The notes under the pieces: model-generated
What the model saw: the letters and a program-made list of their open reading frames with translations, nothing else
The model's database searches: none
Told to the model about the DNA's origin: nothing
Source of the DNA: a virus
Lineage: Duplodnaviria > Caudoviricetes
Reading direction: 5' to 3' (one strand)
IMG/VR virus record: IMGVR_UViG_3300005711_000021
Coordinates: 32,001-96,000 of that record
DNA: 64,000 bases
In this document: one piece after another, positions 3,001-24,300 of the stretch
Layout of the letters: every line of letters begins with the position of its first letter
Position numbering within the stretch: the stretch's first letter is position 1
Position numbers and translations under genes: made by a program

Positions 3001-5953
3001 TACAGCTAATACGCATAGAACAGATAGTAAAATTACAATACTAGATAAACTTGTTATGGCAACAATGGATACAGGAATGATTATGCCACAACTTGAAGAT
3101 ATTAATGCTCAAATTAAATATAAAGCATCTACTCGTGGTATGTCAGAAACGAATTATGCTAAACAATATGATTCATTAATAGCTGCTGACACAATAGATA
3201 TTGTTAGAGATAAAGACATTAGTGCTGAACTTAGAAATACAACTTCTACTAAAGAATACATAAGAGATATTGGTTATTCTGCAAAACAAATTAGTGGTAT
3301 TTATGGGTTCATGTTTGATGAATTAATTCCTGGCAAGAAACAACATATCTTAGCAAATGCATCTTCAATGAGTTCTTTCTCAAGAAGTTTCTGGGATGAA
3401 TCTTTAGGTGGCGTTGGTGGAGGATTCATGGAAATTGCTCGACGTTTCTTCCCTCATGCTAATCATGACAATATAGAAGTTAATCCAATTAGAAATAGTA
3501 TGCCATCATGGATGCCAGAAAGATTTAAACATGGTGATCCATATACTAAAGTTAAAAAAGGTGAAATGAGATTACCAGGTAGAGCTTATGAAGCGATGAA
3601 TCACTTTACACCTAATATTGATTTCTCTGTTCATCCTTATATGACAGGTGCTTCAAAAGAAGAGTTAACACAATACTATATTAACAAAAAAGATATGGAT
3701 GAGTATTTTAACTCACTTCCTATGCAAGAAATTAATTTATCTACTAAAGATGTTAAAAACCTGCAAAAGAATGCAAAAGCTGCACAAGATAATGTTCAAA
3801 AGCTATTAAGATCAGGAAAACTTAATAGCGGAGAATTCTATGATGATTTTCAACGTTTTAAAATATTAGCAGACGTTGCTCCTTATAGTTCAGAATACAA
3901 AAACTATAAATCAATTGTACAAAGTCAATTAACAGATGCGAACAAAAAAGAATACTATGATATTCTAGAACGTGTTAAAAAACAATCTACACAACATGAG
4001 TTTTATAATTATAGATATACTAAAAACTCTTTTGAAGAAATAGAAGGTTATGTAGATACAATCACAAAAGATGGTTTTACGTTAGTTGGAAGTAATAAAA
4101 CATATGCATTAGCAGGTGTTAAAACAACACAAGAAGGTATTAGTACACAACTTGCAGCGGGAGATAAAATCAGAATTAAAGTTGATGCATTAGATGCACA
4201 AGACGATTATTTAAAAGCTGTTGTCTATAGAGATGGTGTTAATATAAATCGTGAAATGATTCGAGATAAAACTGCTGAAAGAAGTTCTGATGGTTCAGCA
4301 ATAGATGCTCATGCAATTGCATCTAATACACAACGTCAGCTTGGAGCAATAGCAGAAACAATTGGACATTTACCTATTCCTATTATTCATAATAGATATA
4401 TGAAGTTAGAAACACCTTTAGAAGCATATAAAAGTGAACAAGTATATGGTACACCATATGCAACATGGTCTCACCCAATACAAGGATATATTCAACCAGC
4501 TTTTAATAAAGCAGTATCAGTTGGACCTATACATGCAGCTTTAGGTGCAACATCATTTGCAGCCAATGTTTTTATAGAAATGTCTAATACAAACTTTACT
4601 ACTTCTCATATGATAAGAGAAGCTGCTGAACTTGCTACAACTATAACTGGTAAAAAAGTAGCTGCAGAAACAGTTGCTAATAATATTACAAAAGCAGTTA
4701 AAATTTCTAATCTGTTAATTACACCAGGAGCAGCAACTGGAGCTACAATAGGTTTTGGTATTAAACTAAGTAATGAACATATAAATAAAGGAGCTATGAT
4801 TGGTTCTGCAATATGGAGTGCTGGATACTTAGTAACAAATGCTAATAACCCATTCTTGGCAGTTGGTGCAGGAGCCTCTATTGGTAAAATAGCAGGAGAC
4901 TTTTTAGAAACATCTGGTGGCAAAAAAGGAGCGGCAGTTGGTGCTGCAATAGGATTTGGTATTTCTTATTTAAGAAACCCTGACTTTAGTATAGAAGGCA
5001 TGAAAGAAAAATGGATACCAAAGAAAACTAAAAAACGTTGGGAAATGGAAGAATACTTTGATAGATTAAATTATATAAAATACAAAGGGTTGTTTGAAAA
5101 AGCATCCGAAAAAGCTCTTAAAAAAGAGGGTGTTAATATTAAACAATTAATACTTGAAATGGAAGAGAAAGAAGCAAAAAATGAAAAAGAAAAGGAAAAA
5201 TTATTAAAGTACAAACAAAAACTTGGTAATAATTATATTAGCAATACCGAATATGGTAAAAGCTTAATGAGACGTATTGACAGCCAGCTTACAGAAACAT
5301 TAGAGTCAAAGATTGTTACGGCGGGAGAGTATACAAAATCAGCAATAGCTTATAAACAAGCTATGGATTCAACAATCTATGGGCTCAAAGAAAATGCGTC
5401 TTGGGCACAAATCCTTAGAGCTTTACCTAAGAATGATAGAGATTTCTTCTTAGAGTTTGCTAAGGTAAAAGATGAAAAAGAACAAAATAAAATTCTTGCA
5501 ACTATTTCTCCTTATAAACGAAAAATACTTCAAAGTATTTGGGGTAGAAAAGTAGATAAACTAGAAAGTAATGAATCTTATTTTAGTTCTTATAAACTAC
5601 CTAATATGTTCTGGGAAGGTTGGAAGCCTAATGTGGACATGGATCAAATCCAAATGAAGACTATTGAGAATGAAGGTATGCTACTATCTGACTTTGGTTA
5701 TTATGATTCTAATAAATACGAACCTGGCTATAATGAAGTTTCTCCTATTAACAATTATCAACAAGATACTAGTTTACTTTCATTAAAAGCTAATTTATTT
5801 ACATCATTAAATGGTTTAGGATTGACAGGTGTAAATGTAAGCATTGAACCAAGTCAAGTCCCTGGTATTCAGATGATTGCAGATTTTGCTAAGATAACAG
5901 ATTATAGAATCAAGCAAAAAATCAATCAAACGTTTGGAAGAACATATTATTAA
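2..5953 (+). CDS. Giant virion protein, tape-measure/ejection-protein-like, with a degenerate SNase-like OB domain and C-terminal glycine-zipper hydrophobic segments (5' truncated)
   Basis: Frame is open from position 2, so the true start lies upstream of the window (track start 56). Mostly helical. Gly/Ala-rich hydrophobic repeats at ~4500-4970 (e.g. GAAVGAAIGFGISYL). Segment ~4034-4280 (YALAGVK...LKAVVYRDGVNINREMI) resembles a thermonuclease fold. Located in the tail/baseplate block. Confidence 0.6.
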   Translation, partial: VFQIEHSLNTNPNGFLRKMYAQEEFIPGIKRELQNRLSDINPKRVNNIVDNILTHVSDTLEYTEEALPDHYKLSSKFKKANKDVLNEEQMLDLEEVIRENFIKKREETQQYINSHQDLLENLKAELLDYDGLATKFGTKNNQRQNMIEQALGDSQVTLRELVENADQIEKTNLISEGNQNPMDVLQRARELIEKDSRYGDLFVDKTLRIDEDGNIRSFAEAANIGKKFETQFLHTLPGKLLKPLETRAFKNSAPNFYFSSKGSVDYLLPKLLEDRESTILENSYFRINDRGFRVAGNELRRESKMDDLFLTSGTYGSHVRLYKNITGDVDYSSAPRSFIAEKLDMGSTPKLNAFENLKLKYKKFKDPQWTPNLIKDKINNLSADQSAEDYFEDMKEINRIFKRSTTKMDKTTVARLNNFNLDESTREIFDLLKLDDENLLKSIAYINTGGTTQNFLNADASSLINRYQKDPKAARSLVSISKKITNVGMNMEYTNADHYPDLLRKELSKEAFLRYKQAFGGDALMNMLNSVPLSNAQRSNAKKLASWGIFQEAGEIYNKDISPKQLEELTKSKTNLQSLFASELSNESNKDRLMKQEFQEVVSAMSKSASTMFDESDAPLEHLNKIEKANRPGSHIYVRKGISALDILSDLNSTEKLKAFGKQFTAGRKNMEDFTSYSFYPYFGLFRLTDALPHLAFSPENTGSVGDLAKNIMLKRVMPVIGAGYTLSYLNYESKNFTGKSLTEAAMVSWSNFDLGVRTFIDKTPLAESFKDMYYTNDLVNYYNPDPYRNVEEQREWYEKGVTPVRKGRWWGMSTSEFRGGKIEYFEPNKLRQVSTPWKDIGVYGSSDEKWKHSIIPTLRHPLSPIRYLMDPYWLEEKNKFSRPYPITAPLFSEGTPWSGILNMTVGNAIKPQRSMHNEVLGNDFTDVRDLILRENERIRKKDALQDRYVMLTGSSSATEERQFDMSGTPTLQGSPVIRGDNIDLSNFNKQSGVSAPYSVTANTHRTDSKITILDKLVMATMDTGMIMPQLEDINAQIKYKASTRGMSETNYAKQYDSLIAADTIDIVRDKDISAELRNTTSTKEYIRDIGYSAKQISGIYGFMFDELIPGKKQHILANASSMSSFSRSFWDESLGGVGGGFMEIARRFFPHANHDNIEVNPIRNSMPSWMPERFKHGDPYTKVKKGEMRLPGRAYEAMNHFTPNIDFSVHPYMTGASKEELTQYYINKKDMDEYFNSLPMQEINLSTKDVKNLQKNAKAAQDNVQKLLRSGKLNSGEFYDDFQRFKILADVAPYSSEYKNYKSIVQSQLTDANKKEYYDILERVKKQSTQHEFYNYRYTKNSFEEIEGYVDTITKDGFTLVGSNKTYALAGVKTTQEGISTQLAAGDKIRIKVDALDAQDDYLKAVVYRDGVNINREMIRDKTAERSSDGSAIDAHAIASNTQRQLGAIAETIGHLPIPIIHNRYMKLETPLEAYKSEQVYGTPYATWSHPIQGYIQPAFNKAVSVGPIHAALGATSFAANVFIEMSNTNFTTSHMIREAAELATTITGKKVAAETVANNITKAVKISNLLITPGAATGATIGFGIKLSNEHINKGAMIGSAIWSAGYLVTNANNPFLAVGAGASIGKIAGDFLETSGGKKGAAVGAAIGFGISYLRNPDFSIEGMKEKWIPKKTKKRWEMEEYFDRLNYIKYKGLFEKASEKALKKEGVNIKQLILEMEEKEAKNEKEKEKLLKYKQKLGNNYISNTEYGKSLMRRIDSQLTETLESKIVTAGEYTKSAIAYKQAMDSTIYGLKENASWAQILRALPKNDRDFFLEFAKVKDEKEQNKILATISPYKRKILQSIWGRKVDKLESNESYFSSYKLPNMFWEGWKPNVDMDQIQMKTIENEGMLLSDFGYYDSNKYEPGYNEVSPINNYQQDTSLLSLKANLFTSLNGLGLTGVNVSIEPSQVPGIQMIADFAKITDYRIKQKINQTFGRTYY

Positions 5954-6602: not shown

Positions 6603-6613
6603 GATACATATTT

Positions 6614-6647
6614 AAGAGCTCGCTAAATCTAGCGGGCTTTTTGTTTT
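6614..6647 (+). terminator. Intrinsic terminator
   Basis: AAGAGCTCGCTA-AATC-TAGCGGGCTTTT stem-loop followed by a T tract. Confidence 0.85.
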
Positions 6648-6692
6648 ATAGTTTATTTTAAAGAGTATTATAAAGATAGCGAGGTGAAATCC

Positions 6693-9600
6693 ATGAAGAA
6701 GAATAAACGTTATACATATAGCGACGAAGTTAGAAGTCGTCTTTTATTACAAAGAGACAAAGAAATTGACCAAGTCGCAAAAAATATATTAGTAAAAAAA
6801 TATGAAGATGAATTAAAAAAAGAATATCCTGATGCCAATGCAAAAGAATTAAAAAAGAAGATTGTTGATAAATATAAAAAAGAATATTATGACATACGTA
6901 GTAACATTATTGCTCCTTTGTATCATGATAAAGTTTCTGACATTATTAAGATTGGTAAAGAGTCCGTAATTATTAGTAATACCAAAAATTATAATCAAGA
7001 AACAACTTATGCAGAAAATACTAAACTTCCAGATATATATAAGAAGATAAGTATTAAATCTGATTTATTTGATGTTATGGAGAAGTATGGTACTTCGTAC
7101 AATAATACATCTAAAACACAAACAGGTTCTGCACTTATTTCAAATGTTATTGAATTTGATAAACTTAATTATTCTTATACAACTGTAAAAGCATCTCAAT
7201 CATTAGAACATGCAAATAAAGCTTATGAGTTCTTTAAAAAGTCTAAGAAATTTATGGCTTATGATTATGAAACAATGGGTGGTACAGATGAATTCGGATA
7301 TAAACGAGTAGATGCTTTAACAGAGTTTGCTTATAGTGTATTTGATAAAGAAAGTGGAAAATCCAAAACAGTTAGTACAATTGTTGGTTTAGATAAAAAA
7401 CAAGAAACACGTTTTAGAGAGCTTATTAAAAATGTAAATAGGGATGGCATTTCTTCTAATGAACAAGATGTCATCTATCGTCGTATCGGTTTGTATGGTC
7501 ATAAAAATACAAGCTTTATTAAAGATGCAGATGGAATGTATAAAGTTGAGAAGATGGCTGATCTTGAATATGGTCATAGATTCTCAGATGCAGATTTAGA
7601 AAGAGGTTTTAAACGCCTTAGAGATATTTATGAAGATCAAGCTAAGTTAGGTAAAACGACTGGTGGTCTTTATAAATGGCAAGAACGATATGCTGAAATG
7701 ATCGGTCTTATGAATAATAAAGATATGGCAGTACTAGACTACAATGGTGTTATTGCCGATAGACCTTGGCAAAATAAATTCTTAGCTACCATGGATTTAA
7801 ATGAATCTCAAAGACAAGAGTTTATGAAAATCGCTGGCATTAATGATATGTTCTTAGATACAACTAGTGAACGTTTTTATGATGTGCGTGTACATACTCG
7901 TTATGCTGCAAATAATGTAGGTTCAGAAGCTTACTATTCAACTGATGAAGCTAAAAAAAGATTAAAAGGGAACACACCATTCTCACAAGAAGGTATTACA
8001 AGAACACTCTTTGCAGAAGAATATGAAAAAGCAGGTGGTGGTGCTCATACTGCAGGATTCGATACACAACTCCTTGCAAAACTAGCAACAGATAAAAATG
8101 GTTTTGGAATGAATGGAGAAACATTTGTAGACCGTATTTATAGAGATGCAAACCTTAGTAAATCAGCTATTAATAGCTCTGTTAGAACTGGGAATTTAGA
8201 TTTGTTAATGGCAAATCAATCTGTTCAATTCTTTGGAGGCGGTAATGGTCCATTAAGTTATGTTTATGATCCAGTTAGTAAAAACTATAGAACAGCTAAT
8301 CAATATTCACTTGGAGAAACTGTATCTAAAGAATTTACTAAAGAAAATCCAATTAAACGTGGACGATTATATACATTAGATTTTGCTGGTCAAGTTAATA
8401 TGACAGATGAATGGGTAAAAAACATTGATGGTATCCATGATGAATATGCTCAGAAATCTTTATATGCTATTAAACTTAATCCATTCTTTGATGAAAAAGT
8501 AGCAGGTGCTCACCAGGGATTACGTGGTCATTCTGTAATGTTCTTTAATTCAAAAGAACAAATGGAAGCTACATTATCTAATATGACAAAGATAGGTGAA
8601 AGAGATTCTGCAACCAATCCTTTTAGATTTTTATCTGGAAAAGCAGGAGAAGAAGTAAGAGAAATGTTTACAACACATAACGTTGTAAATGGAAAAATTA
8701 TAAAAGGTGAATCTCCAGTATCTATTAATGAAATTATTACTAAAGCAACTTATGCTGATGTAAATGATACTGCTGCCAGAATGATTCGTGAAGACAGTTT
8801 CTCTAAAGCGATGAACTTCTCTCAATTCTATGATAAACTTAATGAATTTAATGAAGCTCCTGTAACAAAAAAAGAAGCAAATAATATTTTACTTCAAATC
8901 ATGCAATCTAAAGATAGAAAAATTTCTAAACGAGTTGCATCAGGTAAAGTACTAGAACTTTCATATGCTGATATTCAAGAAACATTAGGTTATTCATTAG
9001 ATAATGGAAAAACGCATAATCTGATTTCTAATACATTAAATAATCAAATGACAGCATTTGAATATATGTCTAGTCAGAATGAAGTATTCAAAGCTATTAA
9101 AAATCATTTCTATGAACAAGGTTATGATAGCGACCAATTCCAATTTAAGTTTGAAAACATCTTAAATCAATTAACAGAACAAGAGATTAATTCTATTACC
9201 AAAAATCCTCGTAAATCAAAAGAGTTCTGGAATAATGGAAAGCCAACTGAATTATTTGGAAAGGACTTAAATTATTTTAACTTTGATGTAAGAGATTTCT
9301 TTAGGGAGAGAATAGAGTCTCCTATACAAGCTTATAGCAAACCAATAATTGATGAAGATATATTAAGAATTGATTTGGGCCCAGGTAAAGAATATAACTT
9401 TGTTAATAACTTACTTCGTCGTACAAGTTATACAACTGAAATGAATGCTGCTCAAAAAAATAATGAAGGTATTACTCAACTTCGTAATTTCGTAAAGAAT
9501 GTTCAAGCAGATAAAAGCTATGGTGATTTATTTTCTCAATTCGATGATGCTAAGATTGCCTCTTATCAATCATCTGATATGTTTGCTAGTTCTATCATAC

Positions 9601-12600
9601 AAGAACTTAGAGAATATAGAAAAGCAAATCCTACTGCAGGTTATTTAGCAGAAGCTTATACTCAAGACGCAACAATTAGAAATAAAATATTAGATAGTGC
9701 TGCTAGTGATCCAAATCTTTATAAACGTATTGCAGAGATAGATGCTAATTCACCTACTTATGTTGTAGCAAAAGGTGATCAACAGCTATTACGTTCACAT
9801 GCTCAAAACATTGTAAATAATATCTTAGTAGATGATATCGATCCTTTTGATTATGCAAAAGAATATGGTTTTTCAAATAATCAAGCTAAACATATGAAGT
9901 ATTTATATAATCAAGCAAAAGAAGAATATACTGATTTCATGACAACATTCTTAGATGCTTTTACTTCAGGGAAAAATACATCATTTACTTATAATGCTAA
10001 AGATAAAACATTCGCTTTAATGAATGGTTCACAAAAAGCTTTAGATATAGACTTACCTAAATTAAAAGCTATGGATGGGACATTCTTTATAGATATGGGT
10101 TCTACTAAAGTAGCACTTCATGCAAAGATAGATGCACAGCGTGCTATTAAAAAAGGTACTTATGCAGGCAGTAAAGATGTGAATGTTATTTCTACTTTAG
10201 GAGCAGCTTTTAATGATACAACTAGTATGCTTAATTTCTACAAGGTTGCTAAAAAAGGAGATAGCAACAATGATATTTTAAGACGTACACAAAGCGTCCT
10301 TCAAAATGTCAAATCAGGTATTCTTTCAGGTTCAAGTGTTGACTTTAATGACATCTTAGATATTCAAACACCTTTTCGTGTAGACTATAAAGATATCATG
10401 GGACTTGCTCCTTTATTAAAACAAAATAAATTATTAGAAGGTAGACAATGGAGAGATCCAGAGTTTTTATCTAAATTAAGACTTGATAAAACATTTGAAA
10501 CTTCTGATGATGCTTATCGTGAATTATTCCAGAAAAACATTCCTGAGATGTTAAGAGTTATCGCTGAACAAAAAGGTGGATTCAATGATGAAACCTGGAT
10601 GGGTATGATAGCTAAGAACATGTCTTTCTTAGGAAAAGAAACACAAATAGCTGACTTTGTTGGTATGATTGATGGTATCGCTCATAGAGCTGGTATTGAA
10701 ATGTATAACAACATGCGTCCAGTTATTAACCAAACTCGTGCTGTGCTTTATCGTACAGAAGATTGGGAGAAAGCTTTAGCATCAGATGAATTTAAAGGAC
10801 GTAATGTAGGTTTAAAGCCAGTTACTTCAAGCCTCTCTTCTCAACAAATTTTAAATAGAGAGTTAACTGGTGTAGGAAGAACATCTGTTGAGTTACAAGT
10901 TGGTAAATTAAATATTTCAGAAATTCATTACCGAGGAGCTATTACTGATTACTATAACAAAAAAGGTAATTTATCTCAAAGAGACCAAACAGTATTTAAT
11001 AAATTAAAGTCTGTCAACTTAACAGAACAAGAACAAGTAGTAGACCCTAGAGTTGCTAGTAAGTTCTTTAATCGTATGCAAGAACAAAAGATTAGTTCTA
11101 GAAAACAATTAAGTTTCTATATGAATATTAATGAACAAACAATAGATGCTGTTAATGAAATAAAAAGTATGAGGCCTAGATTTGAAATTGATTCAGAAAC
11201 AGGTTTACTTCAATTTAAATATGGAAAAGGCGTTGAAAAGAAACGTCATGATAAATTATTAGACATTGAAGGTTATAATAAAAGCTATACTCAAATGTCT
11301 AAAATAACTGGTAAGTTTAATCAAGGTTATTTTTCTAAGACAGATGGCATGCTTATTAGAGAAGAAGAAATTAATAAACTTATCTCTGGCTTTAAAACAG
11401 CAGAAGAAGCAACTAAATTCTTAGATCAAACTTTTGATTCAGCTTGGTATGTAAAACCAAATGACATGGTAACTTATAAGAAAATGCTTAATGGCTTCGT
11501 TGAAAAAGGTATGGGCGATGTTCTTGCATTTGGATTAGGTGAAAGCGATGATAAAGTTAAACAATATTTATCTGCTATTAATAAAGGTTATATTGGAAGA
11601 GTTGCAACAGATGATTTTATCAATGAAGAGATACTAAGTAAGTTTGATTCTAATATTGGTAGAAAAGTTGGTATCAAATCTAAAGAAGAATTAAAAGACT
11701 TAATCTATAAAGAACGTTATGAAGCATTCGATACGTTAAGAGATATCTTTGGTAAAGAACATGATTTCTCATTATTAGCTAACCATTCACAAGGTAGCCA
11801 TAAAAATACACAACTAGGCTTTGAAGAATTAGTTGGGACAATGAAATATCATTTAACCAAAAATGGTATGACAGAAGATGATGCTATGTCTAAGGTCTTT
11901 AGTGACTTAACAGCTGCTGAACATAAGTTTATAAATATCGATGGTGTAAGTTTAAAAGATGGTGTTATTCAATTTCCTGACCATTTAAAAGGTGGACAAG
12001 ATTACTATGATAATGCAGCCTTAGAAAAGATACTTGATAAAGATGAATATAAAGCCATGAAAGATGGGTTACGAGTAAATTACAACGGAAAAGAAGTAGG
12101 TAGCTTTGTAATGACTGGTCTTTCAGAAGCAAGAGATTCACAATGGATGAGTGGTAAAACAGATCCTGAATTTATTGAAAGCATTGCTGATTTACAAGAA
12201 AAAGCAGCTCTTGCTACAGGTAAAGAAAAAGAAAAACTTGAAGCCAAAATACAAAGTTATCTTTCAGCTTTAGATTGGAATACAAAAGGACAAAAGATTA
12301 CAGATAGAGAAATTCAAATGTTAGAATTACAAAGATATGACCAAAATCTTGTAGACCTTATGCAATCTAAGTTAGATAATAATACTTTTGAATCTGTAAT
12401 GGGACATGTTTTACAAAGAGATGAAAAAGGTGCATTTGTTAAACAAGGTGATAAATATCTTATTGATGAATCTGTTCAAGGTAGAGCAATGTTATCTGAA
12501 ATGACAGATACATATCGTGAAAAGTATTTACGTGGGCAAGGTCAAACATTATTTGATATTACAGATAAAAAAATAGATGACATATTAAAAGCTAATTATT

Positions 12601-15278
12601 CTAACGAAAGCGTAAGAAGTGGTATTAAAAGCTTAGTTAGCAGTCAAGGTGAATTATCAAAAGATACTGCAGAACATTTATATTCTATGACTCGTGGTAT
12701 AAAAGCTGTTCGATTTAATGGAGCAGGTTCTTATAGTTTAGAACAAATGCAAGAAGAAGGATTTGAAATAAAGAAAGCAAATCAAATCTTTAAATCATTT
12801 GATCAAGGTAAATGGTCTTTAGAACATCCAGATAGTATATTCAATAAGAGCTTAATATTAGACTTTGGTGAAGAATTTAAATTAGATTCAGAACGCTATT
12901 TAGCACTTCCTTATGCCCCTTCAAAATTAACAGGAGATACAGTAGTTAGAGAAAACTTCCAAAAGAAATTGAATTCTGTTTTAACTTCTTTGAATAAGAT
13001 TGAAAACTTTAATAGAGGTGTTAAACAACCTAATGATACAAAAGAAAAACTTATGGCTAGTTTTAGAAAATATCGTACAGAGTTGCAACAAGAAATAGAA
13101 CTATTTTCTGCCACAGGTAAGAATGGAAATATGGGAGACTTTAGTGTCCGCTTAGACCAGTCTTTTGTAGGTAAATCTTCAGGTGTTGTTGCACTTAATC
13201 CTTTAGAGATTGAAGCTTTTAGTAAAAAAGAAGGAGCAAATGTCCATGAGCTTCTTGGTACATCTTATAGAAAAGCTTTAATTAGTTTAGGCGATGAAGA
13301 TAAAGCTCTAGAGTTTATGAACTATGAACCATTATCTCGTTCTAAGTTTATGGGTAAATCTATCCTTAATCATTATTCAGATGGTTTATATTTAAATGCT
13401 TCTTATGGTGGAGAAGACATCTTTAAAGAGATGGGAATCTTAAGTGAGAACTATCTAAAAAAATCTGGCTTTGATTCTATGGATGCTCTTAAAAAGCATT
13501 TAGAAACAGAAGGTATTATGGTTAATGCAATTCGTACACCAACTATCAAAATGGATTCTACTGCTCCTGCTATGATGTATTTAGATACTTCATTAAAAGG
13601 TAAAAGAGTTAAGACATTATTAGAACCTTCTCTTGCTAGAACAGAGGACTACGATGGGGACCAACCTATCTTCTCTATTTTTAAAAACATAAATGGTGAA
13701 GATTCATTAATAGCAATGAGAAATGGTCATGGTGATGATCTAGTATGGAAAGATATACAAGCTAACATGGTAAGTAGAGGAGTTGGTTCTCATCAATACT
13801 TCCACGATAAGACATATAAGACATTAATTGAAGATGCTCAAAAGTCATTCCAAAATGGTAGTTTCATTTCTTTAACTGGAGATACTGCATTAGATGAAAG
13901 AATATACGCTGAGTTCAACATTGCTCCTACATCAGAAGCTATTATGAAAAATTCAGAAGCTCTAGATGAATTACAAAGCATTTATAAATCAAAACATGGG
14001 GCAGCTTTTAATTTAACAAATGCTGATGATATTGGTAGAGTTTCTGATATTATTGAATCTATGGAAGGCAATACAAGAGAACGTTATTTAAAAGCAGCAG
14101 CTTTTGATCAAGCCTTTGCAAAAACAGAAACAGGTTCTATTGCAAAAGTACGTAAAACAGCTATCGGTGAAGTCAATAACCCATTAGCAAGATTAAGAAG
14201 AACTGCTGACTTAGCACTTCCTAAATTTGGACCAGATTCAGAAAAACGTATGATTCTTCAAAAAGCTTTTGAAGATATTGAGCAAGAGGTTATCTCTGCT
14301 AAAAAAGGAAGTCTTAGAGACTACTGGGATAAAACATCTACATTCAAATCTGCATTAAGTAATTTAACATCTGGAGACACTCAACGCAAAATTGCGGGCA
14401 GAAGAGAAATGACAGAATGGTTAAATTTAAACATGGCTGGAGACTTTGAAAAAAGTGCAAGTCATTTAGCAGCTATTAATTATATGCCTAATACATCTAA
14501 AGAAGATGCTTTTAATTATATTCGTGATACATTTGTAGAAACAATTGGAAGTTTTGATTCTTTAGAATTGCAAAGATTAAAACAATATGATACTCTAGGA
14601 AGTAGTATTAAATCTTATGGATTAATGAATAATGCAGGAGATTTATTAAAATATGCTCCTAATGATAAGACCACTCTTAAAAATATCGGAGTTAATGCAG
14701 CTGTTGAAGCAGGTTTACTAGATACAACTTTAATAGATACAAATCATATTCAAGGTGTAACAGCAATTAAAATGCATGGCGTTTCTCAAGATGTTTTAAA
14801 AGATGGAAATAACGAAATCAGAGAGCAAGTTACAAGTGGTCTTAAAAAAGGCATGTCAGAAATGGCACAATCCATGACAAAGGGGATGTCAGAATTAGCT
14901 GGTTCTAAATTAGGACTAGTATCTGCAGGATTAGCAGCAGCTTATATGATAACAGGTTTTATTGGTAACAATGCATCTCACCCTGCAGATATGCAAGCTG
15001 CACAACAAATGACACAACCTAGTGGCGGTGGGTTACCACAACTAAGTGATTACGGAGATTCTTATCAAAATAGTATGCCTTCTAATAGTGGATATGTTAT
15101 TAATGTTAGAGGAAATGGTTCGCCACAAACATTAGCTAGAGCACAACAAAGCATTTCTCAAACTATGGGTAATACAATTGATGCGAACATAAACGTAAGA
15201 ATGAATATTATGGAATCTAACGGTAATATAAACGATAGATATCTTGATCAATTACTTGTTAACGCTATCGGAAGATAG
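6693..15278 (+). CDS. Giant protein: N-terminal DEDDh 3'-5' exonuclease fused to a putative single-chain two-barrel (DPBB) RNA polymerase, with a C-terminal hydrophobic helix; likely virion-associated
   Basis: ATG 6693 after GAGGTG (track start GTG 6684). Exo motifs YDYETMG (D194,E196), YNGVIAD (D359), AHTAGFD (H455,D460). RNAP-like motifs KMLNGFVEKG (K1600/K1608), AIRTPT (R2284), EDYDGDQ (D2322/D2324/D2326). C-terminal KLGLVSAGLAAAYMITGFIG. Confidence 0.7.
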   Translation: MKKNKRYTYSDEVRSRLLLQRDKEIDQVAKNILVKKYEDELKKEYPDANAKELKKKIVDKYKKEYYDIRSNIIAPLYHDKVSDIIKIGKESVIISNTKNYNQETTYAENTKLPDIYKKISIKSDLFDVMEKYGTSYNNTSKTQTGSALISNVIEFDKLNYSYTTVKASQSLEHANKAYEFFKKSKKFMAYDYETMGGTDEFGYKRVDALTEFAYSVFDKESGKSKTVSTIVGLDKKQETRFRELIKNVNRDGISSNEQDVIYRRIGLYGHKNTSFIKDADGMYKVEKMADLEYGHRFSDADLERGFKRLRDIYEDQAKLGKTTGGLYKWQERYAEMIGLMNNKDMAVLDYNGVIADRPWQNKFLATMDLNESQRQEFMKIAGINDMFLDTTSERFYDVRVHTRYAANNVGSEAYYSTDEAKKRLKGNTPFSQEGITRTLFAEEYEKAGGGAHTAGFDTQLLAKLATDKNGFGMNGETFVDRIYRDANLSKSAINSSVRTGNLDLLMANQSVQFFGGGNGPLSYVYDPVSKNYRTANQYSLGETVSKEFTKENPIKRGRLYTLDFAGQVNMTDEWVKNIDGIHDEYAQKSLYAIKLNPFFDEKVAGAHQGLRGHSVMFFNSKEQMEATLSNMTKIGERDSATNPFRFLSGKAGEEVREMFTTHNVVNGKIIKGESPVSINEIITKATYADVNDTAARMIREDSFSKAMNFSQFYDKLNEFNEAPVTKKEANNILLQIMQSKDRKISKRVASGKVLELSYADIQETLGYSLDNGKTHNLISNTLNNQMTAFEYMSSQNEVFKAIKNHFYEQGYDSDQFQFKFENILNQLTEQEINSITKNPRKSKEFWNNGKPTELFGKDLNYFNFDVRDFFRERIESPIQAYSKPIIDEDILRIDLGPGKEYNFVNNLLRRTSYTTEMNAAQKNNEGITQLRNFVKNVQADKSYGDLFSQFDDAKIASYQSSDMFASSIIQELREYRKANPTAGYLAEAYTQDATIRNKILDSAASDPNLYKRIAEIDANSPTYVVAKGDQQLLRSHAQNIVNNILVDDIDPFDYAKEYGFSNNQAKHMKYLYNQAKEEYTDFMTTFLDAFTSGKNTSFTYNAKDKTFALMNGSQKALDIDLPKLKAMDGTFFIDMGSTKVALHAKIDAQRAIKKGTYAGSKDVNVISTLGAAFNDTTSMLNFYKVAKKGDSNNDILRRTQSVLQNVKSGILSGSSVDFNDILDIQTPFRVDYKDIMGLAPLLKQNKLLEGRQWRDPEFLSKLRLDKTFETSDDAYRELFQKNIPEMLRVIAEQKGGFNDETWMGMIAKNMSFLGKETQIADFVGMIDGIAHRAGIEMYNNMRPVINQTRAVLYRTEDWEKALASDEFKGRNVGLKPVTSSLSSQQILNRELTGVGRTSVELQVGKLNISEIHYRGAITDYYNKKGNLSQRDQTVFNKLKSVNLTEQEQVVDPRVASKFFNRMQEQKISSRKQLSFYMNINEQTIDAVNEIKSMRPRFEIDSETGLLQFKYGKGVEKKRHDKLLDIEGYNKSYTQMSKITGKFNQGYFSKTDGMLIREEEINKLISGFKTAEEATKFLDQTFDSAWYVKPNDMVTYKKMLNGFVEKGMGDVLAFGLGESDDKVKQYLSAINKGYIGRVATDDFINEEILSKFDSNIGRKVGIKSKEELKDLIYKERYEAFDTLRDIFGKEHDFSLLANHSQGSHKNTQLGFEELVGTMKYHLTKNGMTEDDAMSKVFSDLTAAEHKFINIDGVSLKDGVIQFPDHLKGGQDYYDNAALEKILDKDEYKAMKDGLRVNYNGKEVGSFVMTGLSEARDSQWMSGKTDPEFIESIADLQEKAALATGKEKEKLEAKIQSYLSALDWNTKGQKITDREIQMLELQRYDQNLVDLMQSKLDNNTFESVMGHVLQRDEKGAFVKQGDKYLIDESVQGRAMLSEMTDTYREKYLRGQGQTLFDITDKKIDDILKANYSNESVRSGIKSLVSSQGELSKDTAEHLYSMTRGIKAVRFNGAGSYSLEQMQEEGFEIKKANQIFKSFDQGKWSLEHPDSIFNKSLILDFGEEFKLDSERYLALPYAPSKLTGDTVVRENFQKKLNSVLTSLNKIENFNRGVKQPNDTKEKLMASFRKYRTELQQEIELFSATGKNGNMGDFSVRLDQSFVGKSSGVVALNPLEIEAFSKKEGANVHELLGTSYRKALISLGDEDKALEFMNYEPLSRSKFMGKSILNHYSDGLYLNASYGGEDIFKEMGILSENYLKKSGFDSMDALKKHLETEGIMVNAIRTPTIKMDSTAPAMMYLDTSLKGKRVKTLLEPSLARTEDYDGDQPIFSIFKNINGEDSLIAMRNGHGDDLVWKDIQANMVSRGVGSHQYFHDKTYKTLIEDAQKSFQNGSFISLTGDTALDERIYAEFNIAPTSEAIMKNSEALDELQSIYKSKHGAAFNLTNADDIGRVSDIIESMEGNTRERYLKAAAFDQAFAKTETGSIAKVRKTAIGEVNNPLARLRRTADLALPKFGPDSEKRMILQKAFEDIEQEVISAKKGSLRDYWDKTSTFKSALSNLTSGDTQRKIAGRREMTEWLNLNMAGDFEKSASHLAAINYMPNTSKEDAFNYIRDTFVETIGSFDSLELQRLKQYDTLGSSIKSYGLMNNAGDLLKYAPNDKTTLKNIGVNAAVEAGLLDTTLIDTNHIQGVTAIKMHGVSQDVLKDGNNEIREQVTSGLKKGMSEMAQSMTKGMSELAGSKLGLVSAGLAAAYMITGFIGNNASHPADMQAAQQMTQPSGGGLPQLSDYGDSYQNSMPSNSGYVINVRGNGSPQTLARAQQSISQTMGNTIDANINVRMNIMESNGNINDRYLDQLLVNAIGR

Positions 15279-15313: not shown

Positions 15314-18300
15314 ATGAGTCAATCTACTAATAATGCTTCAAAAATACTTGACGAGCTTTTAATTACATCTGAAGGTTACGTCCTAAAAGATGATGATTTT
15401 AGTTTACCTACAGATATGGATTTCTCTTCAGAAAGTTTTAGTGTAGACTTATACAACAAGTTAAATAATGGTGAATTAGATTTTCCATTATATTTAGAAA
15501 CACCATTTTCAACAAAACCAGGTTATTATGAAGATGAACGTGTTTTTATTGCAACAGCTGTTCCATATATCAAAAAAGCTATTAAAAAACATATACCTGA
15601 TAACATAAGAGCTTTAAATACAGCTGAGTCACATGAACAACTAAACTCTGATGACGGCGATACTGTTTACTTTATGAATGAAACTTTATTTTCAGGTGAA
15701 TCTGCTTTTATATTAGGTGATAGAGCATATGAAAACTTAGATGAGTTTTTAAATATTCAATCTAACAAAAACGGTAAGTTTGGTGTCCGTTTCCTAGGTA
15801 TAGATGCACCCGAAATTCCTCACTACATATCTACGCCAATGACATCTGGAGATATTCATAAATTTAAATTCGGAAAGATTAAAAACAAAAGTAACTTTGT
15901 TTTTTCTAAGTTTAAAATATCTGGAGAGTCTATTCTTGATAGAAATGATAATGATACAATAAGTTTTTTCTATGACTCAGAAAATGATACATATTATGAA
16001 ATAATTGAAGAACATTTTGCTCCAGGTTATTTAGATTTATCGGATGAAGAAAAGAAAAAAATAGAAAGTCTAAATGGCACAATCGGAAAAATCGTATATG
16101 TAGATGAGTCTAAAAAGACAACTGTTAAAAAAGGACTTGAAGCTGCAGAAACAGTTAGAGATATGGTTGGTAGAGCAGAAGAAATTTGTTTAATGTTAGA
16201 CCAACAAAGTTTAAATAGACAAACTAACCATTATGAATCACCTTATAATAATGATTACTACTCTTATAACTTCTCACATGCTTTAACACCATGGAATACT
16301 ATTAAAAACTATTGGAATAAATTTTTTAGTGATGCCCGTTATAAATATATGGGATTTAATGCATGGGGACAAGATAATAATAAACGTATGCTTGGAACTA
16401 TTTATTTAAAAGTAGTAGTACCTGAATTAGGTGAAGAAGCTGTTTGGATTAACTTATCTAAATATGTTCTTCAAAAGTTTCCTAAGGATGTAGAAGCATT
16501 ACCAGATTATACATCAGATCCAAAACAAAACTTACATAATGGTTTTTGTTCAAGTGCTTTTAAATTATGGACATATAACTTTACAGACCAAGTAATTCTT
16601 GATGCATTCACAACTTATACAGATGATTTTGTTGAAGAAAGAAATAAAATCTTTGAAGAACTTGCTGGAATGAGTATGAATGATATAAAAGAATATACGA
16701 TGATTTTAGGAGATAATGTTTTTATCGTGCCTCCAACATCTATTCGTTGTATGACTCAAACTCAAGCAGAAAGAGTACAGCTTTTACGTTCAAGAGGTTC
16801 TGCTACAAAGCAAGCTCCTATTTCTGAAAAGATGATAGAACTAAAACTTTATTTTAATAATGAAGATGGTATTAATGGTACACCATATGATGTAACACTC
16901 CCTAATGGACATAAAATAACTTATTGGATGAATGGATTAAGAAGTTTAATAGCTCAATTTAAATTAACACCGTTCTTACCTATTGAAAATAATTATATCA
17001 ATCAAGTGCTTAATGTATATGCAGTTACTTTAATGGATTTACAAGTATCTACAATGCCAGGTTTTCCTAAATGTTTACAAGTTACATTAACACTTCAAGA
17101 ATTTAATTATCATATTTATATGCCCGAATTACCTCTTCCTGAATTATTAAAAGAAGAAGATTTGTATATTAATATGTTTGCTAGATGTATTCATTATCCA
17201 GTAATGCGTTGGTACTATCAACGACTTCTTCAAAAAGGTGAAAAAGTTAAAAACTTAGCTTTTAATAGTAAAGAATATATTGCAGAAACATTCGGTTCTA
17301 ATACGGCACTTGTTCCAATGGATTTTAAAGATTCAGCAATTGAATTTTACTTACCAGATAAAAAACTTTTAGATAGACGTTTACAAGTTTTCCTTGCAAG
17401 AGAATCTAAACCTTTACGTTCTTCTTATGAATTAACAGATGACGGCAAAGAACTTATTAGACAAATGGCCCCTATCTATAATGATTTACTTATAAATAAA
17501 ATAAATAAAGACACAATTGCTTTAGGTAAAAAAATAACAGAAGTTTGTACAGTTGATTATTCAGGTGTTAAAGAATATTATCCTCATACTTTATTTGATA
17601 TTAAAACGAATTCTGCTGTTCTTGAAAATAATGATGTAGGTCAGTTTTACAAATACAAATATCAATTAGTCGGATCAGATAACAATATGTTATTTGGCTC
17701 ATCATTTGCAAATTACACATCAGAAACAGAAAACAGATTCTTTAAATCTGATTTTGGGATTGAACGTGTACAACCACCTATTGGAAATTTTGTAAGAGCT
17801 ATTGAATATGACAATATCCCAATTGATGATTATGATGGTAGAGCAAAAACAACAGGCTCTCCTTATGTATCAAAACATATATCTGACTACTTTAATAGCT
17901 TTACAGGTTTATCTAAATTTGGTGGTTACGAAGTAAAAGAAAGTATTGAAACATATGAAAATGGTAAAGAAGGACGATTTATTTTTGATGTATATGTTGC
18001 AATGCCACAAATACTTAAATCTCAAGTAGAAAGAGAAGAGTTTTTAAAAAATGTTATTACTCAATTAAAAGTAGATAATAATTCGGATATATTTGATTAT
18101 AATTCAGCAGGAGCATTATGTATTAAAATTCGATTTGCAATTCCTACACTTGTTTATAAAGTTAATCTTTATTCAAAAGAGGAACATATTGTTCATGTTG
18201 CAAATGGCGATATTTCATTAGACACATATAGTAATGGATTTGCATTTTTAGGATTTTGTGATCAAAACGTAAAAACTATTTATTTAGAAGATGGCACAAA

Positions 18301-21300
18301 AGAATACTTAGACTATACTGGAAATGCAATGGAAGATATGTCTGAAGATGCTATTGAAGCAAATAAATACAACTACCTAGAATCAGAAAACAGTATTGAT
18401 TTCAAGAAATATGATTTCGGCGAAGATATTAATATTCAATCTATCAGCTGTTCTTATTCAAATAGTTTAGCAAGAGTAAGACTAAATGCTATGGATGGTT
18501 ATGCACATCAATTCTGTGGCGGACAAGATTCTGTTATAGAGATTTCTATTACAACAAAGAATGAATCAGCAGCTTCATTACTTCAAAACCTACCTAGAAT
18601 TGCAGCAAGTTATGTTATTGATTATAAAGAAATTCTTCCATGTTGGCCACTTCGTATAAAGTCAGAGATTACAAAGCTATTTGGTATTAATGAAGTATTA
18701 GTTGAAGCAGTAGATTTATCAACTGTACCAAACTATCCAGGACTATATAGTATCACATTGAGAATGGTATCTGTAGATAGAAGTACTCGTAATAGAGAGA
18801 CACTTAAAAAACTTGAAGAAATTAATAATGCAGGTACTCTTGCAAATGATGCTAAAGGTGAATATATGCAAAATACATTCTTTGATTTAAATCGTGTATT
18901 AGGCAAAGCAGAAATTTATCCTGATTTAGAATTACCATTAGTAGATGAACTTGAATATGCTGGTTATAAGTTAACAAAATATTATAATCCAGAACAAAGT
19001 ACAAGAAAATATTTAGACCCAGATTTCTATTTTGTTTATGCTCATATTCTTACTCATGAGCTATTAAAATCAGCAATACAAAAAGGATTAGATGAACAAA
19101 AAGTAGAACTTGGTTTTGAACTTAATGATAAATTTGGAAGTTCATATTTAGTTAAAGAAAACACAGATACAGAATCCAATTTACCAATGTCTGCAGAACC
19201 CACAAATGATGTTGCAAAAGATATACAACAACAAGCAGAAGCTGCTTATTCAACTAAATATATAGATTCTGTTGCAGATACAATGAATAGAAGAGGATGG
19301 TTGGCTCTTGAAGAGAAATATAAATTATCTTCTAAATTACCTCAAACACTTGCAGGAATGAAAACACCAGTTTGGTCTATTACAGATAAGCTTGTCTTTC
19401 CATTAAGAGAAGAACAATACAAGTTAATTTATAATGGTAATGAAGAACAAGATAATATTTATCACCAACAAATTAAATCCCATGAAGATAAAATGTATTC
19501 TATTATAGATAATGAATTAAACTATCCAATTAACATGAAAGCAATCGGTATGGAAGAATACACTAAGAAAAATTTTCCTGGTGATCATTTAAGAGATAGC
19601 GAATCATTATTAAAGTGGGCAGAAAAACGTATTGGTAAATTCTCTAAACAATATGCTTATAATCGTTCATTCATTAATGAGTTGGCACATGATAATTTAA
19701 ATGATCCAACTGCTGTTAAAGTAAATGGATTAAAAGATATTCTTCTTGCTTTTGCAGATAGTGCTACAGGCTATGCATTTTGTGAAACTACAAAAGTCCT
19801 TGCAATAAATTTAGCTTCAACAAAAGATGATAAATATTCTGCTGTAAACTGGAAGCTTAAAATGTTTAATAATTATGGTGGACAAGTTTATAATGGAAAT
19901 ACTGTTAATTGGGATGTGCTAGAACCTTATTGTAAAACAAGAGGTAAGGACAGAGAGTTTGCAATGAATCTAGATGATGCGATTGAGAATGGTACATCAT
20001 TTGGTATTTATCAAATTCAAATGTATCCAAAGGCTGCTATTATTGATTTAATGTCAAGTGAATATGAAAAACAAAAAGTAATGCAAAGTAAAGTAGAGTT
20101 TGTTTTCTTAGATCCTTATTATAGATCGTTACAATTAGATGATCCTACAAGTGATGAATTAAAAGCTTATAAAATGAAATTATTACTTGACCCAGCATAT
20201 TGTGCGTATGCTTATATTAGAAATCTAATGGTATGGTATAAATATCTTCTAAAAGAAGAAATTGCTTTATCTATGTATGAAACCATTAAAAATGAAGCTG
20301 CTAGTAAAATAAAAGTTTCAATAGGAGATATCAATTCTTATGGTTACGGCAGCTCGGGAGAAACAATTAATAATTTCAAAGAAGATAAATTTGAAAAAGC
20401 TACTAATCAAACGTATAAAGAAGTTTTTACTCAACATGCAAAAGTATTCGCTATTGCCTATGCAGTCTTATACGATACTAAAAATAATAACCATCTAGCA
20501 ACGGAAACAGCTCTTGAAGAAGAAGGCGTTCCAAATGAGTTATTTAGTTATGTAGATAAATACAAAAACAAGACTGAAAAAGATTTAAAAGCTTTAGAAG
20601 TAGATATTAGAAAAGACTTAAAAAAGGAAAAAGAAAACAAAGAACACTCAGATGAAATCAAAGAAGCTTATATTAATAACTATAAACTTATGCTTTCTGC
20701 ATTAGGCTATGATGTAGATAATGATACCCATACAGAAGTTACATACGACAATCTTTTAAGATATGGTGTTGCTATTGTAGGTCAATATGAAACACAAAAA
20801 GAAGAATCTCGTATCAATAATCAAACTTTTAAAGAAATAATTGAACAACTTACTTCTGATAAAAAAGATATTATAAAAGGTAAATTAATAGGTCTTTCTT
20901 TATTACTTCTTAAAAATGGTGGCAGTGTTTTATCTGCAATGAGAAGAAGAGAAACTTATGAGCTAGATAGTTTAATGTTGAGTTTACCAATGCCAACAAT
21001 TAATGGCGAAAACAATGATTTAAGAAAATATGTTTTAGCATTAGATGGACGTGGCGTATTAAAATTAGAATATGTAGGTTCTTCTACTCAATCTGCAGAA
21101 TCGTTGGTTAAATTTGCAGCTTCAACTAGAATTAACATTAAAAAATGTAATAACATTCGAGAGTATCTAAAAGACTCATTCTTAGATATGATTAAATACG
21201 ATAAGCGAGGAAGAATGTTAAGAGCTTTCCCTACTTATTACATGTTATTTATAGATGAAGGACGTGATATTGGTTTATGGAAACTACATGATAACTTTTA

Positions 21301-24300
21301 TAATATGAATGCAATTTCAGAAATCACTATTACGAAATCTAGAAAAATAGCTGCTGATACAGCTCAAATTACAATGAGTAATATGTTTAAAACATTCTCT
21401 ACAGATGATGCACAAAAAGATTATGATGCTTCAGAAATCAATAATGTACGTTATAATATGAGAACTGCATTTAACTCTATATTCTCTCCTAGAGTATATG
21501 CTATGAAAGAAGAAGCATTAAGACAATTAGATGAAACACCTAGAGCTGCTCAAATAAATCCAGGAGTACGTGTTCATATTAGAATGGGATATGGAGCAAA
21601 TGCTGCCGATCTTCCTGTATTATTTAATGGTTGTATTGCTGAAGTAGGAACAACTGATCTTGCAGATATTGTTGCTCAAGGTGACGGTGTGGAGCTATTA
21701 AATCCAATAACAGATATTGATGATGCATCTGATGTTGAAAATAAAGAAAAATTCTTTATTGAAAAATGGGTGGATAATTGGCTCACAAATGGTGCAACAC
21801 CAAAACAAATCATGACTGCATTATTAATTAGTAGAGGAACATGGTTTCAAGAATTACTTCGTACTTATTCAAATGGTCGTTTCTTTAATAGAAATCCATA
21901 TGGTATTGTTCACTTTGGAGATCAAGAGTTTAAAGATATATTCTCTGCAGGTGAAGTTGTACAAAACATTTATGAAGCGAATCCAAGAGCTACTTATGGA
22001 GAACATGAAAAATACTCAGGCTTAGAAGCTTATTATGATACATTTAATACACCTGTTATTTCTATGCATTTATTAGGTAAAACATTTTGGGATGTTATGC
22101 ATATATGTGCATCTGTTCAACCAGATTATATTACAAGTGTTGTGCCTTTTGGCATGAGAAGTTCTATTTTTTATGGTGCTCCAAGATACTATTATGCATA
22201 TGATTATGCAGAAGAGAAATTAGATAATGGTGGAAGAATCATAAAAGAAAAACGTAAGCCATTCCAACAATATCATTTATATAGTTCATTTACAGATATT
22301 ATCCATAATAACATAAGAGCTTCTGCAAAAGAGATTAAAACAAATGCTGTAGGACTTTATCAAGAATCTCATCTGTTTGGAGATAAAGTAAAACAGGTAG
22401 GTCCACTCTTTGTAGATTTTGATATTTATCCAGAATACCAAAAGTCAATGACTGTAGATACACAGTTATGGGCAAAAGGTATGCCAGTTCTAGGTAATAT
22501 GTTTGGATTTACGGCTGATTTATCAAAAGATGTTTCTAATAAAGGATTTAATAAAATTCCTGGTGCAAAAGAAATTGCATGGCGTATGACAGCTTCAGCT
22601 TTAAAAAATTCTGTTAAAGATATGTATACTGGAGAGCTTACTGTCATAGGAGATCCAACAGTTAAACCATATGATAGAATGGTTATATCTGATGCTTATG
22701 AAAGAATAGATGGTCAATGTGAAGTAGAAGCAGTTGTTCATACATTAAATACTACAACAGGATTTACAACAAGTATTTATGCCGATTGTATTTCTATTGT
22801 AGATGATCAATACGAACAATATGCTAATATCTTCCTTAATAAAGTAATGGGTTATGCTTCAGCTTCATTAGCAGCAAACTGTATTGGTTTTGTATTTAAT
22901 AAACATGGTAGACCTATCGTTACTTCTCTTATTAAGATGACAACTAATGGAGTTGGAAAAGGTATTAACATTGCAAAGAATATAGAATCATTTTTAGGAA
23001 AAGATGATTTAGCAATTGTTAATAAGATTATTTCAGCTAATGATAAATTATTATCTTTTACAGGTCATTCTGTAGAATCAACTTTTTTATCTGTATTCAA
23101 AAATAGTTTAAAAAAGACAACATCTAAGTTAACAGCTTACTCTGGTTTAAATGTTGTTAGTGTTATTCAAGCAGATGATTATTTAAAGAACCTAGCTGCT
23201 ACATTAAATGAAATAGAAGATGGAACGATAAAGAAACAAATTACTAAAATAATAGCAAGTGAAAAAGACGATTTAGCAATTGCTAAACAAGCTCTTAGTG
23301 AATATAATGAACTAGCAAAACTAAAGAAATCTAGTATATCTCATTTATTAAAAGCAGATGATGATTTAATAAGTGCAATTACAAAACTAGCAAGTCATAG
23401 TCAATTAGATGATGCATCTAAAGTTGTGTTTAATCAGATAAGGTCTAATCCAGATTTCTTATCAGATACTAAAAACATTAATAGCTTTAGAAAAGCATTA
23501 GTAGCTAGTGAGAAATTAGGAGATGATGCTTTAGACGTAGCAAAAGCTCTTAAAAAGATTATGAATAACTCCGATGATATTGCAAAAGCCGCTTTAAGTA
23601 TGTCAGATGATGTTCTAAAAAAAGGTGGATTAAAAACTTTATTTACATCAGGTTCTGAAACTTTACTTGGTGGAATTGCAGCAACTGGTATTTGGCCCGC
23701 ATTAATTCTAATGGTATTAGAAATGGCAATAACAGCTTTAATCGGAGGTTATGCAACAGAATTTGTTTATCGTTATTTACAAAATCTAGAGGTTCTAAAA
23801 ATTTATCCACTTAAGAGAAAAGGTCGAGTAATGGTAGCTGGTATTGATGGACATAAAGGAGTAGTTGTAGGATCACCTACAGAAAATCAACAAGGTGAAT
23901 GGACTCAATTTGTTTCTTCATTATTTGATGGAGACAAAGGAGGGTTCGTTAAATCATGTATTAATTTCTTTATTGATGATGTTAATATTAATACGGCTGC
24001 AAAACGATTAAGAACAGATAATTATTTACCTGAGAAACAAGGTAATGTTAATAGTGACATCACTCTTGAATCTGTAAAACAAGCCATTGCTAAAGATATA
24101 AATTCAATCTACTCTAACAATGGTAAGTATAGTGCTAGAGAAGTTATGAAACTTGATAGAATTATGAACTTAAAAGATGAAAATGAATTAAAGAAACATT
24201 TAATTGATCCTAACTTTAAATCTGGAACGATGCCAAGTAAAAATGTAATATCACTAAGAACGAATCCAATTCAAGAGGATGAAGAAATCAAGCCATATTT

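Follow-up and report, generated by a model that had tools for sequence, protein, structure and literature searches.

The phage contig of IMG/VR record IMGVR_UViG_3300005711_000021 carries, in its tail gene block, a gene for a giant protein of 2,861 amino acids (aa), in which residues ~1340–2540 are predicted from the modelled fold to form a single-chain, two-barrel, Mg-dependent RNA polymerase (RNAP) that would be catalytically active. The contig is linear, with a length of 117,989 bp, and is ~50% complete as estimated by CheckV; we analysed positions 32,001 to 96,000, and this 64-kb window is a single co-directional phage gene block of ~30% G+C, within which no tRNAs were found. From its N-terminus, the protein is made up of an exonuclease, ~850 residues of unassigned fold (492–1339), the predicted two-barrel polymerase, a second unassigned stretch (2540–2741), a probable membrane helix and a terminal module. 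We regard it as probably a tail-associated (‘pilot’) protein that combines several enzymes and belongs to a jumbo myovirus related to Bacillus phage 0305phi8-36.

The gene is an open frame on the + strand at 6693..15278. The open reading frame (ORF) extends over 6684–15278 and holds 2,864 codons without a stop, with the GTG at 6684 lying inside a GAGGTG ribosome-binding site that precedes ATG 6693 by six bases. Because this ribosome-binding site stands before it, ATG 6693 is almost certainly the true start and gives the 2,861-aa product; an identical database protein (P0002) is likewise 2,861 aa long. Residues are numbered here from GTG 6684, so that the position in the real protein is the number given minus 3.

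The polymerase module is predicted to adopt a two-barrel fold

We modelled residues 1340–2539 (10701..14300, + strand) with AlphaFold2, using a 29-sequence alignment and no templates. The model is confident, with a mean predicted local distance difference test (pLDDT) value of 85.9 and a predicted template modelling (pTM) score of 0.84. A Foldseek search of the PDB returned 263 matches at E ≤ 1e-3, and each of the matches listed is to a bacterial RNAP complex, in most cases to its beta' chain, the best being 8t02_J (E 3.4e-6). In a structure comparison, the strongest likeness was to QDE-1 (7y7p_A; score 12.5, r.m.s.d. 3.6, 283 aa), followed by P74 gp62 (8f5m_A; 10.3), the AR9 non-virion RNAP (nvRNAP; 9.4), Pol I (9.2), the phiKZ nvRNAP (9.1) and P23-45 gp96 (9.1 and 8.8). 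Vaccinia, Pol II, Mycobacterium tuberculosis beta', archaeal, Pol IV, African swine fever virus, plastid and Pol III enzymes scored 8.0–9.0, and phi14:2 gp66 scored 6.2 with 408 residues aligned. PolD, primases and other polymerase folds were not among the structural matches listed, which is no evidence of their absence.

The extent of these alignments separates two groups. For the single-chain enzymes (QDE-1, gp62, gp96, RDR2 and gp66), the alignment begins at model residue ~1–11 and extends to model residue 1200, except for the second of two gp96 crystal structures, where it ends at 1002. The beta'/Rpb1-type chains of multisubunit enzymes match only model residues ~645/675–1200, while the plastid RNAP chain 8qma_A aligns to residues 1–479. 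That beta' chains match the second half only is the expected outcome if the first half takes the place of a separate beta subunit, and the model thus supports the fusion of two barrels proposed in an earlier note, made from the sequence alone.

The catalytic barrel can be placed with some precision, as isolated double-psi beta-barrels (DPBBs; CDC48-N, VAT-N and designed DPBBs) align to model residues 815–1031, which form the barrel that holds the RxP and DxDGD motifs. We assign this beta'-like barrel (DPBB-A) to residues ~2155–2332 (13146..13679, +), with R2284-x-P2286 at 13533–13541 (+) and D2322-x-D2324-G-D2326 at 13647–13661 (+). Conservation and the model together give a beta'-type DPBB with a Mg-binding DxDxD triad, a feature of the two-barrel RNAP superfamily. 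A putative beta-like barrel hairpin, suggested by conservation and the model strands, contains K1600 and K1608 (K-x6-E-K; 11481..11507, +), which the model places on neighbouring strands (E259–264 and E268–274). Superpositions of the whole module suggest that this lysine pair and the aspartate triad converge on one site. A 50-residue helix (residues 2462–2511, model helix H1123–1172; 14067..14216, +) containing G2495 lies ~170 residues past the aspartate triad. In phi14:2 gp66, the bridge helix spans residues 1529–1559 and the DFDID motif residues 1361–1365, a similar distance past the catalytic triad, and the helix here is a probable bridge helix.

The candidate catalytic residues are invariant across the family

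The motifs listed in the earlier note are all present at their positions in the translation of ORF 6684–15278. EDYDGDQ occupies residues 2321–2327 (nt 13644–13664), AIRTPT residues 2282–2287, with R2284 38 residues before D2322, and KMLNGFVEKG residues 1600–1609 (nt 11481–11510), and the weaker candidates MRPVINQTRAV, TEQEQVVDPRVA, ANHSQGSHKN, KTAIGEVNN and EQEVISAKKG were likewise found. The occurrence of such motifs says little in itself. DxDGD appears by chance in 7% of shuffles of the giant protein and is thus little proof on its own, although with an RxP 30–42 residues upstream the frequency falls to 0.1%. The K-x7-K spacing adds nothing to the motif evidence, since the protein is lysine-rich (~9% lysine). 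The spacing of the lysine pair (K-x6-E-K) is the same as in KMAGRHGNK of E. coli beta.

Support for the polymerase motifs lies instead in their conservation. An exhaustive HMMER search with residues 1340–2539 recovered 74 homologue clusters at 50% identity, 69 of them at E ≤ 1e-10 and nearly all 2.7–3.1 thousand aa (kaa) long, where a word-indexed search had found six. We counted conservation in an alignment of 68 of these clusters, whose identity with the query is mostly 20–30%. Across the query piece of 1,200 residues, no more than twelve columns are invariant (68/68): K1600, E1607, K1608, G1619, E1677, H1706, R2284, P2286, D2322, D2324, D2326 and G2495, the last within the motif AKxxKxxIGExN. 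G2325 is kept in 66/68 clusters, and the residues flanking the invariant columns are freely variable. Invariant key residues amid variable surroundings form the pattern to be expected of catalytic residues and not of a ruler or scaffold. The DxDGD motif and lysine pair, on which the earlier note relied, are therefore conserved as that note would have them, while its weaker beta-like motifs, possible counterparts of E. coli beta NMQRQAV, EDSILVSERV and DIVLNP, are present but conserved only in part (R1345 in 63/67, Q1350 in 57/66, E1448 in 61/67 and R1456 in 55/67).

An exonuclease and a C-terminal module flank the polymerase

The follow-up analysis added a domain that is absent from the earlier note. 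Residues ~186–491 (7239..8156, +) have the motifs of an intact DEDDh (DnaQ-like) 3'–5' exonuclease that is presumably active, with an RNase H-like exonuclease fold and all Exo I, II and III residues together with the histidine: D194-x-E196 (Exo I), N354-x4-D359 (Exo II), D400, and H455-x4-D460 (Exo III). D194, E196, N354, D359, D400, H455 and D460 are invariant in a 17-sequence alignment (A5); in a second alignment (A4), N354 is nearly invariant only (≥90%). Its role could be to break down host nucleic acid or, more speculatively, to ready the end of the entering DNA as a template. We also observed an exonuclease-like DIETTG motif at residue 1223 of gp146 of 0305phi8-36 (L006:37624-45237).

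A rival reading gives the two-barrel module a different specificity, namely that of an RNA-dependent RNA polymerase or terminal transferase (as QDE-1, the closest structural match, and the plant RDRs), or that of a PolD-like DNA polymerase or primase working with its fused exonuclease at the genome end. We consider this most improbable. The characterised phage members (gp66, gp96/gp64, YonO, and the phiKZ and AR9 enzymes) are all DNA-dependent RNAPs, and for replication the phage already encodes a Pol III alpha-like enzyme, a primase and DnaB. Moreover, the exonuclease looks like an independent cargo domain because it is present without a polymerase motif in gp146.

At the other end of the protein, the C-terminal hydrophobic helix that the earlier note had reported was located by a Kyte-Doolittle scan at residues 2742–2761 (14907..14966, +). 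It is probably membrane-inserting, and its glycine/alanine-rich consensus is kept across the family. The protein ends in a conserved module (GYVINI...NIxMNI..GNIxDR; 15081..15278, +) with near-invariant Gly, Tyr and Asn columns, which is common with gp146 of 0305phi8-36. The module aligns to gp146 residues 2470–2530 (hhalign E 0.0013, probability 18%) and the rest of the two proteins does not align, in agreement with the report that only the last ~60 residues are conserved in the gp146 slot across the lineage (Hardies et al. 2007, PMC2147016).

The giant occupies the tape-measure slot of a conserved tail cassette

By its gene content, the phage is a low-GC myovirus of the 0305phi8-36 lineage. 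The nearest relatives given by the portal are Bacillus phages 0305phi8-36, WH1, Edson and KLEB27-3, Moorella phage MTATph1 and Acinetobacter phage ME3. The gene order begins with portal, protease and major capsid genes, a 958-aa sheath, a 2,086-aa giant, a 113-aa membrane protein and the RNAP giant, and continues with a 3,152-aa giant, an M23 peptidase, a gp25-like sheath initiator, a J-like baseplate protein and fibres, beyond which lie a primase, DnaB, a sigma-like protein and RecJ. The giant genes had suggested a crAss-like podovirus, a reading that we rejected in view of the sheath gene, the baseplate genes of gp25-like and J-like type and a portal of the 0305phi8-36 type.

The upstream giant (2..5953, +; 2,086 aa, beginning before the window) is the homologue of 0305phi8-36 gp145 (BLASTP E 1.7e-62), and the downstream giant (15314..24772, +; 3,152 aa) is the homologue of the baseplate hub/lysin gp147 (BLASTP E 7e-50; phrog_20474, E 5e-191). 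As its neighbours are the gp145 and gp147 homologues, the RNAP giant occupies the slot of gp146, which is annotated ‘hypothetical tape measure protein’. The three giants form a conserved cassette, and their order is repeated around homologues with an identity of only 23–25%, including one that lies on a 251-kb contig. The records of gp145 and gp146 carry mass-spectrometry virion notes, while that of gp147 notes peptidoglycan-degrading domains only. The earlier note had placed the gene between tape-measure-like and hub genes; the hub side of this placement holds, while the gene itself sits in the slot that the literature on 0305phi8-36 gives to the tape measure.

This position bears directly on a rival explanation, in which the giant is mainly a tape measure or structural protein of the tail lumen and the barrels are a relic, bind nucleic acid only or form an inactive polymerase. 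The gene has the position of a tape measure, between chaperone-like genes and the hub, and a hydrophobic helix, the slot is given to the tape measure in 0305phi8-36, mainly from tail length (Hardies et al. 2007, PMC2147016), and the length of the family is tightly conserved. In addition, gp146 has no DxDxD and the slot protein of ME3 has a deviant DHDQD. The interval holds two giants (2,086 and 2,861 aa), however, and the ruler could instead be the gp145 homologue, whose gene follows immediately on the chaperone-like ones. Catalytic residues that are invariant over 68 clusters at 20–30% identity, in variable surroundings, indicate selection on chemistry and not on length, and the DEDDh residues are likewise invariant. 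We therefore judge a mainly structural role to be very unlikely.

Packaging of the giant is suggested by the shared gene order together with the annotation that depositors gave to its relatives. An active two-barrel RNAP could otherwise be made late and act in the cell, for example on late genes, without being delivered by the virion. In favour of this, the evidence for the virion runs through synteny with gp146, which itself lacks the polymerase motif, and through the depositor labels of the WH1 and KLEB27-3 proteins. Against it, the gene keeps strictly to its place between two virion giants, the C-terminal hydrophobic helix is accompanied by a terminal module common with the virion protein gp146, and the length is conserved at 2.7–3.1 kaa. 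Precedents are P23-45 gp96 and phi14:2 gp66, two virion proteins whose genes also lie among those for the tail. A terminator-like hairpin is present upstream, and expression together with the late structural genes would fit packaging. An RNAP that stays out of the virion is thus quite unlikely.

Cultured relatives carry homologous slot proteins

The slot proteins of WH1, Edson, KLEB27-3 and ME3, which lie between the gp145-like and hub giants, are annotated as structural or hypothetical only. A Foldseek search of BFVD with the polymerase model gave three matches of note. One (E 3.9e-11) falls in the second half of a protein whose length, 2,515 aa, fits WH1 gp095, another (E 3.7e-9) is to a metagenomic ‘minor tail protein’, and the third (E 3.2e-5) falls in the second half of an ME3 protein whose length fits ME3_36. 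The corresponding motifs can be read in the sequences: N-RYP-TIN...KA-DHDGD in WH1 gp095 (‘virion structural protein’), RYP...DYDGD in KLEB27-3 gp034 (‘structural protein’) and REP...DHDQD in ME3_36 (gp36; 1,603 aa; L013:8173-12984), with Gln for Gly at the fourth position of the metal motif.

Profile comparisons agree with this for two of the phages. The family aligned to the exonuclease domain of WH1 gp095 with a probability of 97.5% (hhalign E 5.8e-12). A profile of the WH1 and KLEB27-3 pair aligned with a probability of 95.8% over 959 columns, covering the N-terminal and central region; in the region of the catalytic barrel, 279 columns aligned with a probability of 94.4% (E 9e-8). The sole matches to PF00623 (beta' catalytic domain) in the WH1 and KLEB27-3 genomes also fall inside the slot genes, at sub-threshold E values of 7e-5 and 5.4e-4. 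By these sequence comparisons, the WH1 and KLEB27-3 slot proteins are homologous to the giant, with the exonuclease and the RxP...DxDGD barrel in common, although they are shorter (2,434–2,515 aa vs 2,861 aa here). The slot proteins of all four phages are too divergent for tblastn. For ME3_36, the profile comparison was not significant (E 0.1–0.22), with the RxP...DxDxD stretch as its top alignment, and a pattern search did not find the DxE[TS]xG exonuclease motif; ME3 is probably a further cultured relative. We found no paper treating the WH1, Edson, KLEB27-3 or ME3 slot proteins as polymerases.

A second type of polymerase is present in this lineage. Among four cultured relatives, PF05183 matched only 0305phi8-36 gp99 (E 1.1e-20) and had no match in WH1, KLEB27-3 or ME3, with which tblastn with gp99 agrees. 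In contrast to the polymerase in the tail protein, gp99 (PF05183 clade, with QDE-1 and YonO; L011:38027-41683) is a stand-alone polymerase, encoded by a 1,218-aa early-region gene, in a phage whose slot protein has no DxDxD. As PF05183 is found only in 0305phi8-36, whose gp146 lacks DxDxD, phages of the lineage may carry either a stand-alone YonO-like polymerase or a tail-slot polymerase module in a complementary manner, judging from these four genomes. Iyer et al., in surveying jumbo phages, listed two-barrel RNAPs within group 3 for no phages other than 0305phi8-36 (gp99) and Clostridium phage c-st.

Sequence searches and points against the assignment

Routine annotation misses the giant, as the earlier note had expected, with the Pfam, PHROGs and PDB sequence searches all empty. 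The giant had no match in PHROGs and none in Pfam but a chance FANCM match (E 0.18), and when 17 family members were scanned against Pfam, neither an RNAP nor an exonuclease family came up at E ≤ 0.05. PF05183, for which gp99 served as the positive control (E 1.1e-20), had no match in the protein, the 17 family members or the genome. BLASTP against gp99 found no match, nor did tblastn of residues 1973–2864 against 50,697 phage records. No sequence homology to P23-45 gp96/gp64 was found by PDB phmmer or hmmsearch. The leads from the ESM Atlas were all below 0.9 and included, at 0.84, a viral cluster of PF05183.

Several of our results weigh against a virion-delivered polymerase. PDB phmmer and hmmsearch found no sequence-level match to a characterised RNAP, PF05183 and PF00623 had no match in the phage contig, and hhalign gave no significant alignment to phi14:2 gp66 or 0305phi8-36 gp99. 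Because no sequence-level likeness to a characterised RNAP was found, the assignment rests on the predicted structure and the motifs. Since gp146 of 0305phi8-36 lacks DxDxD, the slot does not imply a polymerase. A folded polymerase of 1,200 residues is hard to reconcile with an extended ruler in the tail tube. Lastly, with the contig ~50% complete, this phage could have further RNAPs.

Comparison with known virion polymerases

The kind of enzyme is already known, as two-barrel virion RNAPs in tail or tape-measure proteins have been described for P23-45 (2024) and crAss-like phages (2021). P23-45 gp96 is a tape-measure-fused, two-barrel virion RNAP (PDB 8H2M/8H2N; Chaban et al. 2024, PMC10770324). 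The giant described here has no detectable sequence likeness to it and belongs to a phage with a contractile tail, whereas that of P23-45 is non-contractile. The polymerase is in the C-terminal half here and N-terminal in gp96, and a DEDDh exonuclease is fused N-terminally here, with the peptidase (M23) as a separate gene, in contrast to gp96. The podovirus virion RNAP phi14:2 gp66 (PDB 6VR4) likewise has no sequence likeness to the giant and no exonuclease domain, and its DFDID motif has Ile at position 4, where Gly is kept here. Our literature search for this family, or for two-barrel RNAPs in myovirus tape measures, was of incomplete coverage and found only the P23-45 work. What appears to be new is a family that is unrelated in sequence to gp96 and gp66, its occurrence in contractile jumbo phages, the polymerase in the C-terminal half and the DEDDh fusion.

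By delivering an RNAP with the virion, a phage can begin its programme without depending on the host. To our knowledge, only four kinds have been shown experimentally: the T7-like enzyme of N4, the phiKZ-type multisubunit enzymes, crAss-like gp66 and P23-45 gp96. If our reading is correct, the giant would represent a fifth, sequence-unrelated family of cellular-type polymerases, placed in the tape-measure slot of an ancient contractile jumbo lineage and joined to a proofreading-type exonuclease. It would then explain the large ‘hypothetical/structural’ protein of the cultured Bacillus phages WH1, Edson and KLEB27-3, predict rifampicin-resistant early transcription in such phages and raise the question of how a multi-enzyme protein of >300 kDa passes through a tail tube. 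The family also adds new, very divergent sequences to the history of two-barrel polymerases.

A proposed role in genome entry

It is probable that the phage brings a transcription enzyme of its own into the host cell. We think it likely that the giant is catalytically active on a DNA template, packaged in the virion, ejected and used for early transcription. By analogy with P23-45 gp96 and phi14:2 gp66, the giant would be assembled into the virion at the tape-measure position inside the tail and would exit via the tail tube upon contraction, after which the C-terminal helix could anchor it at a membrane channel. The first genes on the incoming DNA would then be transcribed by the polymerase with no need for the host RNAP, which the product of the sigma-like gene might later redirect. 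The presence of this gene in the window fits the host RNAP taking over the later genes.

An unlikely elaboration of this proposal is that exonuclease and polymerase form one entry machine, with the giant doubling as the tail ruler and folding into active enzymes only after ejection. The membrane-anchored exonuclease would resect the 3' end of the entering genome, or host nucleic acid, and so expose a single-stranded template, from which the factor-less polymerase would initiate without a promoter, its transcription helping to draw in the ~230-kb genome. For comparison, phi14:2 gp66 prefers single-stranded or denatured DNA.

Other features of the window

Directly upstream of the giant gene lie an ORF for a 70-aa coiled-coil-like protein (6391–6603) and a terminator-like hairpin with a T-run (6614–6641), which may be a transcription boundary within the tail operon. 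Between the two giant tail genes, a 113-aa protein (5983–6324; phrog_9829) has an N-terminal hydrophobic helix, and at a remote homologue locus (L007) the gene in its place matches the holin family PF05105. Downstream, the 3,152-aa gp147 homologue has its own hydrophobic segment (residues 2783–2815) and is followed by the separate M23 peptidase gene at 25171–26403.

Among the replication genes, a sigma-factor-like protein (61089–61976; phrog_351, E 5e-8) suggests that the host RNAP is redirected for later genes. The Pol III alpha-like DNA polymerase is found in two ORFs that are 325 bp apart, at genome positions 96853–98250 and 98575–100641 (L003:853-2250 and 2575-4641). These match phrog_405 positions 42–444 and 445–1082, respectively, and could represent a split gene or the presence of an intervening element.

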